In this document: positions 40,771-43,700 of the stretch, piece by piece
Layout of the letters: each line of letters begins with the position of its first letter
How positions within the stretch are numbered: position 1 is the stretch's first letter
Assembly: GCF_000026545.1 (NCBI RefSeq)
Contig: NC_011601.1
Direction: 5' to 3' (one strand)
Source of the DNA: Escherichia coli O127:H6 str. E2348/69
GTDB taxonomy: Bacteria; Pseudomonadota; Gammaproteobacteria; Enterobacterales; Enterobacteriaceae
Length of the DNA stretch: 64,000 bases
Made by a program: the position numbers

Positions 40771-43700
40771 CCGACAAACAAATTTCGTGCGAATTACCGC
40801 TAAAATCGCGTTTTTCTGTCGACGCACACGTTTGCGTATCATATCAGAAAAAAGGGCCGGATGACTCCAGCCCTGTATTTTTACTTGCTAAACGCAGCCT
40901 GGAAGACAGCTACCAGCGCGTCGTTCTGACTCTGAGTCAGAGTATGACCTTTCGGATCGATGAACTGTAGGCTGCTGCGGTTATCTAAATCGCCAACCTG
41001 CAGTTTATAGTCACCGGATGCCAGACCTGGATCGCTCGCGCCCAGTTCGTGCCATTCGCTGTCAGACAGCGGCTTATAAGTTACGGCCATGTTGCCCTGC
41101 GAACGGGTGCTGTCGGTCACTTTCATGCCCACTTTTTCCAGCGCAGCTGGCAGACGTTGCCAAACCACATTGAACGGCCCGCGTACGACCAGCATTGGTA
41201 AACCGGTGTCATCAGCTGCACTTTGTACGTCCATAGTGGTGGAGGCACGATTTTGCGCAGCGTTCGCGGCGTCAGTGGCAGATTTATCCAGACCGGCGGA
41301 AATAACGTTCATCATCTCCGTGCTGTAACGCTGCATAGAAGCCGCGTCTGCAACCGGTTTGCCCGCCTGTTCCAGGTTCAGCAGTTTAACCGTAACCGCC
41401 TGCTGATAACCCTGCGGCTTAACAGAGATTTGATAACGACCACGATACTGCTCGTCTTCGTCCAGACGGTTCCATTGTACCCAATCGGTGGTCAGTGTCT
41501 GACCAGCATCATCACGTTGGGTGATGGTGTAGTTTTTCGCCTGCAGCACGCTAACCACCTGCGGCCACAGAGTATTACCACGACCATTTTCCACCAGCAA
41601 TGAAGCGGTATCGCCCGTGAACTGGGTGCGCGCGCCAGAAACCAGTGCCAGCGGCTGGGCTGGTGGACGAATGTCCAGCGCCTTACCGACGGCACCACTA
41701 CCGTTGGTCACCGGGATTGCATAATCGCCGGAGGTCACCGGCAAGATCATTCCAGCCGGGGCATGAAGCTCCGCAAGCGGTGCCGCTTCCAGGTAGGCTT
41801 CATCACCACTGACCTGACGCTTATAGCGTGAGTCAGAACTACAGGCAGCGAGTAATAAAACAAGCGAAACACCCGCAACCTTTGCCAGGCGCGACTTTTG
41901 AACAGAGTAAGCCATCAAATCTCCCTAAACTTTACAGCAAACCGGCATGCTTAAGCGCCGCTCTGACCGTCTCACGACCACTGTCGGTGATTGGTGTCAT
42001 TGGCAGGCGCAGCGTATCGGTCGCCACAAGACCCAGTTCCTTACATGCCCATTTCACCGGGATTGGATTGGGTTCGACAAATAGTTTGTTGTGTAATGGC
42101 ATCAGACGCTGATTAATAACGCGTGCCTCGGCAAAATGCCCTTCTGCTGCCAGTTTGCACATCTGGGCCATATCACGCGCTGCGACGTTAGCCGTAACGG
42201 AAATAACCCCATGACCGCCTAATTGCATGAAGTCCAGCGCGCTCGCATCATCGCCGCTCAGCAGAACAAAATCATCTGAAACCAGCTCTTTGATCTGGTT
42301 TACACGCGTTAAGTTCCCTGTTGCCTCTTTGATTCCGATAATATTTTTTACTTTCGCCAGACGGCCCACCGTTTCCGGGAGCAGATCGCAGCCAGTACGG
42401 GACGGCACATTATACAGAATTTGCGGCAGGTCAGTATGTTCAGCGATGGCTTTGAAATGCTGATACAAACCTTCTTGCGACGGACGATTGTAGTAAGGGG
42501 TTACCGTCAGGCAGCCGACGATACCGCTGTCATTGAAGCGCTGCGTCAGGCTAATGGCTTCCGCAGTAGCGTTAGCACCGGTCCCGGCAATCACCGGAAT
42601 GCGCCCGTCAGCCAGCTCCAGCGTCATCATCACCACATCAGCATGTTCGTCATGATTTAAGGTAGCGGACTCGCCAGTGGTGCCAACAGAAACGATCGCC
42701 GAAGTACCGCTGGCGACATGATAATCAATCAGTTTTTTCAAGCTAGCCCGACAGACATTACCTTTTTCATCCATCGGAGTAACAATCGCGACAATACTTC
42801 CCGTGAACATGGGCCATCCTCTGTGCAAACAAGTGTCTCAATGGTACGTTTGGTATGGCATTAAAAGCAAGCAGACAGAACCGTTCTGATTGTTGTATGC
42901 ATGTTTTTTTTATGCTTTCCTTAAGAACAACTCACCCCTTGAAGGAATAACCAGTTTGACACTGTCATCGCAACATTATCTGGTGATCACTGCGTTGGGT
43001 GCCGATCGCCCTGGAATAGTGAACACCATCACCCGTCATGTCAGTAGTTGCGGCTGTAATATTGAAGACAGTCGCCTGGCGATGCTGGGAGAAGAGTTCA
43101 CGTTTATCATGCTGCTTTCCGGTTCATGGAATGCCATTACTCTGATTGAATCAACGTTACCGTTGAAAGGTGCCGAATTGGATCTTTTAATCGTGATGAA
43201 ACGGACAACAGCCCGTCCGCGTCCGCCCATGCCAGCATCGGTCTGGGTTCAGGTCGATGTGGCCGACTCTCCGCATTTGATTGAACGCTTCACAGCACTT
43301 TTCGACGCGCATCATATGAACATTGCGGAGCTGGTGTCGCGCACGCAACCTGCTGAAAATGAACGGGCTGCGCAGTTGCATATTCAGATAACTGCCCACA
43401 GCCCCGCATCTGCGGACGCAGCAAATATTGAGCAAGCGTTCAAAGCCCTATGTACAGAACTCAATGCACAAGGCAGTATTAACGTCGTCAATTATTCCCA
43501 ACATGATGAACAGGATGGAGTTAAGTAATGAATCCACTGAAAGCCGGTGATATCGCACCGAAATTTAGCTTGCCGGATCAAGACGGAGAACAAGTTAATT
43601 TGACCGACTTCCAGGGACAGCGTGTTCTGGTTTATTTCTACCCGAAAGCCATGACCCCCGGCTGTACCGTACAGGCCTGCGGCTTACGCGATAACATGGA

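Follow-up and report, generated by a model that had tools for sequence, protein, structure and literature searches.

The lac operator O1 is bound by a LacI-family repressor and lies over the transcription start site; lac-type repressors are released by inducer, whereas PurR requires a corepressor, either hypoxanthine or guanine. For a group of pur genes, purC among them, purR-dependent regulation is reportedly 5- to 17-fold, and specific in vitro binding by purified PurR, together with purR-dependent expression, is said to have been described in 1990, the year to which a classical primer-extension paper on purC is also said to belong. In the ChIP-chip analysis of Cho et al. 2011, the PurR motif was placed between the -35 and -10 elements in 14 of 32 PurR-regulated promoter regions, and the PurR sites of purB and purR are stated to lie inside the open reading frame and to block elongation there. 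The same study counted purC within the repressed PurR regulon: in strain MG1655 the log2 enrichment of the purC peak was 2.08 when adenine was present and 1.52 when it was absent, so that PurR occupancy at purC was adenine-responsive, like that at other pur promoters. REP elements, which also concern us here, are defined as imperfect palindromes of 30-40 nt whose 5' foot carries a conserved GTAG and whose stem contains a mismatch, and only 84 of the 584 in K-12 are single REPs (Ton-Hoang et al. 2012).

We analyzed a 64,000-nt stretch of the E. coli O127:H6 str. E2348/69 chromosome (hereafter the window), in which bamC (40881..41915, minus strand) lies upstream of purC (39955..40668, minus strand). 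The bamC open reading frame is annotated as bamC at the homologous place in MG1655 and other E. coli, and purC encodes a SAICAR synthetase of 237 aa that is 100% identical at the E. coli and E. albertii loci. Between the two genes is a palindrome at 40822..40837 (no strand assigned) that reads acgcacacgtttgcgt on the plus strand and ACGCAAACGTGTGCGT on the purC (minus) strand. It differs from the perfect PUR-box palindrome ACGCAAACGTTTGCGT at one of 16 positions, keeps seven of its eight symmetric pairs and has the central CG. No other match with one mismatch or fewer is present in the window, and such matches arose in none of 100 dinucleotide-preserving shuffles; when up to three mismatches were allowed, there were three matches, with 0.61 expected. 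This box also scored highest in the window when a leave-one-out weight matrix was derived from the 27 other published PurR motifs, although its score of 18.65 bits is weak evidence by itself and not decisive, one of 20 shuffled windows having reached 18.96 bits.

The identity of the palindrome as the purC PurR operator is already known biology. In Table 1 of Cho et al. 2011, the motif assigned to the in vivo PurR ChIP-chip peak of purC in MG1655 is this very 16-mer, and its published coordinates map exactly onto the box of the window. The K-12 purC operator/promoter is the same element, an identical 16-mer at the homologous genomic position, and the MG1655 RefSeq annotation consulted contains only coding sequences across the bamC-purC stretch, with no repeat or regulatory entries. 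Relative to the purC ATG at 40668, the box begins 169 nt and ends 154 nt upstream, leaving 153 nt in between. A preliminary description of this DNA had called the palindrome a near-perfect PurR operator about 150 bp from the purC ATG, and both statements hold, the first with agreement at 15 of 16 consensus positions and identity to the published motif, the second with the box end at 154 nt.

The position of the box within the promoter was examined using published start sites. In the portion of the Kim et al. 2012 start-site supplement available to us, purC has a start at NC_000913.2 2595803 (minus strand) with a 5' UTR of 163 nt, and the -50..+1 sequence given for it ends in CTGATATGATACGCAAA. 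This start comes from one high-throughput data set in strain MG1655; transferred to the window by alignment to MG1655 and by coordinates, it falls at 40831 (minus strand), which is base 7 of the PUR box, so that the box spans -6 to +10 of purC. The passages of that supplement examined for purC (b2476) show no other purC start, and purC is absent from the start-site supplements of Mendoza-Vargas, Shigella M90T, and ROSE. Directly abutting the box is an extended -10 element, TGATATGAT (40838..40846, minus strand), with TG at -15/-14 and TATGAT at -12..-7. This is the canonical geometry of a sigma-70 extended -10 promoter (TGnTATGAT, -15..-7) and it fits the mapped start exactly. The element is unchanged across ten Escherichia sequences and is kept in Citrobacter, Pseudocitrobacter, and RIT691. 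No recognizable -35 was found for purC, the best candidate being GAGTCA (three of six positions, at 18-nt spacing), and a two-hexamer scan returned no sites; the promoter call is therefore based on the mapped start together with the extended -10. Promoters of the extended -10 class do not require a -35 hexamer. A -10 at the position used in Enterobacter, CAGAAA, was considered and rejected, since it agrees with the consensus at only three of six positions and is variable within Escherichia.

An intrinsic terminator for bamC (40848..40874, minus strand) consists of a hairpin at 40874..40853, with nine pairs of which six are G-C, and a T-run at 40853..40848; the terminator scan identified the hairpin followed by TTTTTT. 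It occupies -43..-17 of the purC promoter. The primary bamC 3' end determined by Term-seq in MG1655 (2597798/2597799; Adams et al. 2021 supplement) corresponds to 40848/40849 of the window, the last two T's of the T-run, 11 nt before the PUR box.

Downstream of the start, the purC 5' untranslated leader (40669..40831, minus strand) is 163 nt long and contains a REP block. The block is a 55-nt hairpin (40722..40776, minus strand) with a GTAG foot on the purC strand and a single y-type REP core at 40735..40768, which reads GTAGGTCGGATAAGGCGTTCACGCCGCATCCGAC on the purC strand; 32 of 34 positions follow the REP consensus of E. coli, and 0 such matches are expected by chance. The core is flanked by GCCGGATG (40722..40729), a half-arm lengthening the hairpin. 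The REP had previously been placed at 40723..40777, 1 nt away from the extended hairpin delimited here. There are three other REP copies in the 64-kb window, a query containing the purC REP finds a median of nine matching places per E. coli genome, and the purC copy sits outside genes, between bamC and purC. The predicted energy of the block hairpin is -30 kcal/mol, and the whole leader folds better than its shuffles (z = -3.0). Only one full REP is present, and the arrangement is therefore not a BIME of paired REPs. On either side of the REP is one copy of a duplicated leader segment, the distal copy CAGAAAAACGCGATTTTAGCGGTAATTCGCAC at 40787..40818 and the proximal copy CAGCAAAAGATTTTAAAACGTTAATTCACAC at 40684..40714 (both minus strand), the latter within a 51-nt invariant proximal leader. 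Local alignment of the two copies gives 25 matches, four mismatches, and five gap positions, and both copies align to one single copy in Citrobacter and Pseudocitrobacter. The Shine-Dalgarno sequence of purC, AGGAG (40677..40681, minus strand), was read from the sequence and is kept in all aligned Enterobacteriaceae leaders. A riboswitch or leader RNA was rejected, Rfam having no such family in the leader; its only match there is the REP-derived naRNA4 at 38 bits, below the gathering score of 59.5. A leader peptide was also rejected, because the leader lacks an ATG and its sole in-frame GTG open reading frame, at +3, has no ribosome-binding site.

To see how the architecture varies among relatives, we compared purC upstream regions across genera and within Escherichia. 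In other genomes, 26 species-representative loci (24 non-Escherichia) have the exact 16-mer, once per locus and always upstream of purC; boxes with two or three mismatches are present in Erwinia, Serratia, Morganella, and others. In the 24 non-Escherichia species the distance from box to ATG is 65-130 nt (65-69 nt in 19 of the 24), compared with 168-169 nt from box start to ATG in E. coli and E. albertii. Pairwise alignment shows that E. coli and E. albertii carry an insertion of about 102 nt with the REP, which is flanked by the duplication of about 30 nt of leader, and it is because of this lineage-specific insertion in the leader that the box lies so far from the ATG in Escherichia. Of 5426 complete E. 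coli genomes, 5425 have the whole architecture. Over 361 nt the window and MG1655 share 99% column identity and the same -10, terminator, REP, and leader architecture, the five substitutions being one in the terminator loop, three in the leader at +12, +13, and +16, and one in the REP foot, with none in the box or the -10. Among ten hand-picked Escherichia sequences, variable columns number 0/16 in the box, 2/46 in the terminator and -10, 27/102 in the distal leader and REP block, and 0/51 in the proximal leader; no other part of the region evolves as fast as the REP block, with 17/65 variable columns, and in E. albertii the REP has lost its outer stem and its hairpin has an energy of -17 kcal/mol, compared with -30 kcal/mol in the window. 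A good -10 (CATAAT, TAGAAT, TAAAAT, or GATAAT) lies 2-5 nt downstream of the box in Enterobacter, Leclercia, Phytobacter, and Pseudescherichia.

Taken with the published data, the palindrome is very probably the purC PurR operator within the purC promoter, standing far from the ATG because the leader has been lengthened by the Escherichia-specific REP insertion. According to this explanation, purC would be transcribed from the extended -10 immediately past the bamC terminator, with initiation at base 7 placing the 16-bp box over -6 to +10. Hypoxanthine or guanine would load PurR, the PurR dimer would then bind the box, and the bound dimer would exclude RNA polymerase at -10/+1, repressing purC along with the rest of the pur regulon. 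Steric occlusion of RNA polymerase is the most likely mode of repression, as judged from an operator at -6..+10 that follows right after the extended -10. The insertion, one y-type REP hairpin plus the duplicated segment of about 30 nt, would have lengthened the distance between the start codon and a promoter-operator that is ordinary in other respects. The preliminary description had offered, as one of two options, that the REP lies in the 5' UTR of a gene whose promoter and operator are unusually distal. That option is supported by the identical ChIP-chip motif and by the published start, which falls within the box and 163 nt from the ATG, but "unusually distal" is apt only for the distance to the start codon and not for the promoter, where the operator occupies an ordinary repressing position.

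Compared with the PurR operators located in -35/-10 spacers, purC shares the repressor, the 16-bp box, and, presumably, RNA polymerase exclusion at initiation, but its box is placed past the -10, over the start site. In silico, the Enterobacter-type relatives appear to have the spacer arrangement around the very same box. The purB and purR sites have the repressor and box family in common with purC, whose box instead overlaps +1. In that respect purC resembles lac O1-type control, with a LacI/GalR-family dimer on a palindrome overlapping +1, although auxiliary looping operators are not evident at purC. The purC REP shares with REP/BIME elements of 3' UTRs or between cistrons (REP325, malE-malF) the y-type REP, the GTAG foot, the mismatched stem, and a multicopy, extragenic distribution, but it is single, without a BIME, and it sits past the promoter of the downstream gene, hence in a 5' leader and outside the bamC 3' UTR.

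Other readings of the palindrome and of the promoter can be weighed against the same data. A purC promoter downstream of the box would consist of a -35 TCGACA (40822..40817), an 18-nt spacer, and a -10 GGTAAT (40798..40793), with a start near 40786, a leader of about 118 nt, and PurR acting just upstream of or over the -35. TCGACA agrees with the -35 consensus at five of six positions in the window, and the four genera headed by Enterobacter do have a good -10 just past the box. This promoter is nevertheless highly improbable and we rejected it: the purC start in the available part of the Kim et al. 2012 supplement is at 40831 and not near 40786, the proposed -35 coincides with the stretch that varies most among the Escherichia sequences (CGACAG, CTGCAG, CGGCAG, CGGTAG, CAGCAG, CAGTGG), making it strain-specific (MG1655 has TCTGCA there, three of six), and GGTAAT lacks the essential A at -11 in a region where the promoter scan is empty. 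Equally improbable is that the palindrome serves the end of the bamC transcript, the second option of the preliminary description, whether it contributes to the terminator or 3' structure or lets bound PurR obstruct dapA-bamC read-through. The box is just 11 nt past the bamC T-run, and the elongation block that Cho et al. 2011 describe for sites inside the purB and purR open reading frames makes a minor roadblock on read-through conceivable. Against that option stands the separate, strong hairpin whose T-run forms the bamC 3' end upstream of the box, a terminator that does not need the PUR box; moreover, the box is found with purC promoter elements and contains the purC start, and PurR occupancy is adenine-responsive as at other pur promoters. 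A functionless chance match could appeal to the similar top weight-matrix score in the one shuffled window, and it is refuted by the absence of shuffles with one mismatch or fewer, conservation at 26 loci, in vivo PurR occupancy, and the start inside the box.

The rivals that carry somewhat more weight concern the leader and not the operator. The leader REP hairpin might be a functional regulator of purC, through mRNA stability, translation, or premature termination, instead of a passenger. Its fixation in all but one of the complete E. coli genomes and its presence in E. albertii, the stable hairpin predicted in all Escherichia sequences examined together with the favorable leader fold, and the ability of REPs in 3' UTRs to serve as terminators or decay blocks (bioRxiv 2026) speak for such a role. 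We consider it unlikely, because the block evolves fastest in the region and the E. albertii hairpin has decayed, the 19 relatives with 65-69 nt between box and ATG have no leader room for a REP block, the purC strand has no U-run after the REP hairpin, and the Term-seq supplement of Adams et al. 2021 assigns no 3' end to purC. The variability of the middle block and the decaying hairpin give the REP the look of a passenger, and across the ten hand-picked sequences it looks like a largely neutral one. We put at a slightly lower, still small, likelihood the broader proposition that the 102-nt insertion is non-neutral, whether through an effect of the REP hairpin on the stability, translation, or premature termination of purC mRNA or through an extra element concealed in the invariant proximal 51 nt (40669..40719). 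Those 51 nt hold the duplicated segment and a weak promoter-like pair, CAGACA-N17-GTTAAT, and an element there might serve as a transcription start independent of PurR or be bound by an sRNA or a protein.

The biological weight of the reading we prefer, a purC operator in an ordinary promoter with a lengthened leader, is small: publications already cover the purC operator, PurR occupancy there, and the start site, and the window agrees with them. The cross-genus comparison does reveal a clear-cut natural case in which a REP has become fixed within a 5' leader. There is also a hint, from sequence comparison, that genera may place the -10 on opposite sides of one fixed operator. How far a site lies from the start codon is a poor guide for judging operators: insertion of a mobile repeat into a leader can triple that distance and leave promoter-operator geometry untouched.

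The palindrome upstream of purC lies at 40822..40837 and reads acgcacacgtttgcgt on the plus strand and ACGCAAACGTGTGCGT on the minus strand, where purC, tmcA, ypfJ, bamC and dapA are all encoded. It differs from the perfect PUR-box palindrome ACGCAAACGTTTGCGT at one position. With at most one mismatch allowed, the 64-kb window has no other match, and 100 dinucleotide-preserving shuffles yielded none; with up to three mismatches, the window has three matches against 0.61 expected. A PurR weight matrix derived from Table 1 of Cho et al. 2011, using the 27 motifs other than this one, ranked it as the top site of the window at 18.65 bits; shuffling gave 18.96 bits in one of 20 windows, and the matrix score by itself is therefore not decisive. 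The preliminary description of a near-perfect PurR operator is upheld by the single difference and by the uniqueness of the match, and the distance to the purC ATG, estimated there at about 150 bp, is 169 nt from the box start and 154 nt from the box end.

The 361 nt around the box are 99% identical to E. coli K-12 MG1655, and 5425 of the 5426 complete E. coli genomes contain the 261-nt sequence that reaches from the stop of bamC to the start of purC (at least 90% identity over at least 80% of the query length). The PurR ChIP-chip region of purC in MG1655 contains the motif ACGCACACGTTTGCGT at 2,595,794-2,595,809, with a log2 enrichment of 2.08 with adenine and 1.52 without (Cho et al. 2011, PMC3159470). 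The same authors, citing Meng et al. 1990 and Tiedeman et al. 1990, place purC in the set of IMP-biosynthesis genes that PurR-hypoxanthine represses. After a 1,978-nt genome-version shift and alignment of the window with MG1655, the motif coordinates fall exactly on 40822..40837. The palindrome is E. coli's own purC operator, occupied by PurR in published MG1655 data, and is therefore already known; whether PurR binds it had been answered by the ChIP-chip data of Cho et al. 2011. The RefSeq annotation retrieved for this stretch of MG1655 has only coding sequences. Purified PurR reportedly bound the purC operator in the work of He et al. 1990.

Other PurR motifs were found in the window. A second strong PUR box, TCGCAAACGTTTGCTT at 50395..50410 between upp and purM, has exactly the sequence of the purMN ChIP-chip motif, and CCGGAAGCGATTGCCT at 45098..45113 (minus strand), between yfgO/perM and bepA, is identical to the yfgO/yfgC motif (Cho et al. 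2011, PMC3159470). K-12 has both of them about 13.8 kb farther from purC, since the approximately 13.8-kb hyf-focB block of MG1655 (b2481-b2492) is missing from the window and bcp is followed directly by yfgO/perM (43998..44097). The same layout occurs in E. coli strain 104, where, unlike in the window, vapBC is found between purC and ypfJ. A match within the uraA coding sequence, ACGGCAACGATTGCGC at 49046..49061 (17.7 bits by the PurR matrix), is absent from the ChIP list of Cho et al. 2011 and may be due to chance.

Two explanations had been offered for the remote operator: a distal promoter and operator with the REP element in the 5' UTR, or action of the palindrome at the end of the bamC transcript. 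Published start sites come from terminator-exonuclease-enriched 5' RACE sequencing of MG1655 (Kim et al. 2012, PMC3415461). In the accessible part of that supplement, purC has a single entry, at 2,595,803 on the minus strand, with a 5' UTR of 163 nt and a -50 to +1 sequence ending in CCCTTTTTTCTGATATGATACGCAAA. The final A is base 7 of the box, window position 40831, and the box therefore spans -6 to +10 relative to this entry. The same position was one of two candidates predicted from sequence ahead of the Kim et al. data. Relative to this start, TATGAT occupies -12 to -7 and TG -15/-14, making this an extended -10 promoter; no good -35 was found in the promoter region, where the best match was 3 of 6 and a two-hexamer scan was empty, and the -35 region is the loop of the bamC terminator. 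By this entry, the start lies inside the box, a position compatible with operator function, and the REP lies in the 163-nt leader, in agreement with the distal promoter-operator. As for the bamC transcript, a 9-pair hairpin (40874..40853) directly follows the bamC stop codon, with TTTTTT after it, and the primary 3' end is at 2,597,798 and 2,597,799 (Term-seq supplement, Adams et al. 2021, PMC7815308), corresponding to 40848 and 40849, the final two T's of the run. Since this is 11 nt short of the box, bamC transcripts stop before the palindrome, which argues against action at their end. Bound PurR may be a minor roadblock to read-through from bamC, but nothing requires such an effect. The bamC terminator also serves as the upstream part (-43 to -17) of the purC promoter.

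The second candidate, a TCGACA-18-GGTAAT promoter downstream of the box, was rejected: its -35 is strain-specific, in the most variable stretch in Escherichia, GGTAAT misses the A at -11, and the accessible Kim et al. 2012 entries place no start at this site. The Kim et al. supplement also gives two ypfJ starts on the minus strand, at approximately 39791 and 40075, one with a 4-nt leader and TATAAT in front, the other 288 nt upstream, within the purC coding sequence.

With the operator at the start site, PurR charged with hypoxanthine or guanine binds at -6 to +10 and most likely keeps RNA polymerase off -10 and +1; the promoter, of the extended -10 type, has no -35 as a second contact. The position of the box is observed; the steric mode is what this position and established LacI/GalR-family behavior most likely imply. 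Of the 32 promoter regions under PurR control in Cho et al. 2011 (PMC3159470), 14 have the motif between -35 and -10; the purC box lies elsewhere, so that purC falls outside that group.

The REP between operator and purC ATG (40735..40768) was confirmed, with 32 of its 34 positions as in the E. coli REP consensus (0 expected by chance). The element, a lone REP of the y type, sits within a 55-nt hairpin and has the GTAG foot on the purC strand. For E. coli REPs, a 2026 preprint gives approximately 40% between tandem and 60% between convergent genes and describes them as acting like 3' UTR elements, so that a 5' leader downstream of a promoter is an unusual location. Rfam returned only the REP-derived naRNA4, sub-threshold, and no riboswitch or leader family for the purC leader. 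On the purC strand the hairpin lacks a U-run behind it, and Adams et al. 2021 (PMC7815308) assign no 3' end to purC in their Term-seq supplement. On the plus strand, antisense to the purC leader, the REP flank forms part of a hairpin with a T-run that resembles a terminator (40713..40730). Three further REP copies are present in the window, at 47304..47337 (minus) and at 5746..5779 and 5846..5879 (both plus), the latter two identical, 100 nt apart and in the same orientation.

Among ten hand-picked Escherichia sequences (nine E. coli and E. albertii), variable columns numbered 0 of 16 in the PUR box, 2 of 46 in the terminator and -10, 10 of 37 in the distal leader (+11 to +47), 17 of 65 in the REP block and 0 of 51 in the proximal leader (40669..40719). 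Fisher tests set the middle, comprising distal leader and REP block (27 variable columns in 102 nt), apart from the proximal leader at p = 7e-6 and from the promoter-operator segment at p = 9e-5. By prediction the REP hairpin has -30 kcal/mol in the window but only -20 and -17 kcal/mol in the two divergent lineages, and its outer stem is gone in E. albertii. Because the sample is small and hand-picked, we infer only that a tolerated passenger fits this pattern better than a conserved regulator. The last 30 or so nt of the 51-nt proximal leader are all that is common to other genera. The proximal leader also contains a weak promoter-like pair, CAGACA-N17-GTTAAT; the accessible Kim et al. 2012 entries give no second start for purC (b2476).

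The origin of the long leader was sought in purC loci from 80 species, whose upstream DNA was scanned for the exact 16-mer. It occurred once per locus, upstream of purC, in 26 loci, 24 of them non-Escherichia. Counted from the ATG to the box start, the distance is 65-69 nt in 19 species (among them Citrobacter, Enterobacter, Leclercia, Pseudocitrobacter and Phytobacter), 75-130 nt in a few, and 168-169 nt in E. coli and E. albertii only. Aligned with Citrobacter and Pseudocitrobacter, Escherichia is identical in terminator, -10 and box on one side and in the ribosome-binding region on the other, with approximately 102 extra nt: the REP block between two imperfect copies of a leader segment of about 30 nt. 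The distal (40818..40787) and proximal (40714..40684) copies, both on the minus strand, each align to the single copy of the relatives, and to each other with 25 matches, 4 mismatches and 5 gap positions; the insertion therefore came with, or preceded, a target duplication. The long purC leader is thus explained by an Escherichia-specific insertion of REP plus duplication, an explanation not found in the accessible literature. Other expansions between box and ribosome-binding site, each different, place the box 130 nt from the ATG in Kluyvera (L018), 100 nt in the Enterobacter-like L021, 87-88 nt in L030 and L031 and 213 nt in Serratia plymuthica (L065). This stretch of the leader seems tolerant of insertions.

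The position of the -10 relative to the box also differs between genera in silico. Escherichia, Citrobacter, Pseudocitrobacter, Kluyvera and Pluralibacter have a good -10 directly upstream of the box and none downstream (TGnTATGAT or TATAGT; loci L007-L011, L013, L018, L020, L024 and L034), whereas Enterobacter, Leclercia, Phytobacter and Pseudescherichia have one 2-5 nt downstream (TGnCATAAT, TAGAAT, TAAAAT or GATAAT; loci L004, L005, L012 and L015 from Enterobacter and Leclercia, and L014, L016, L017, L025 and L026). In the Enterobacter-like L021 (2401..2416) and L064 (2432..2447), the asymmetric box base is in the other half-site, giving ACGCACACGTTTGCGT on the purC strand. The -10 pattern, not found in the accessible literature, suggests promoter turnover around a fixed operator, a hypothesis because start-site data come from E. 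coli only. If true, one group of genera would have the same operator at +1 that the other has in the spacer between -35 and -10.
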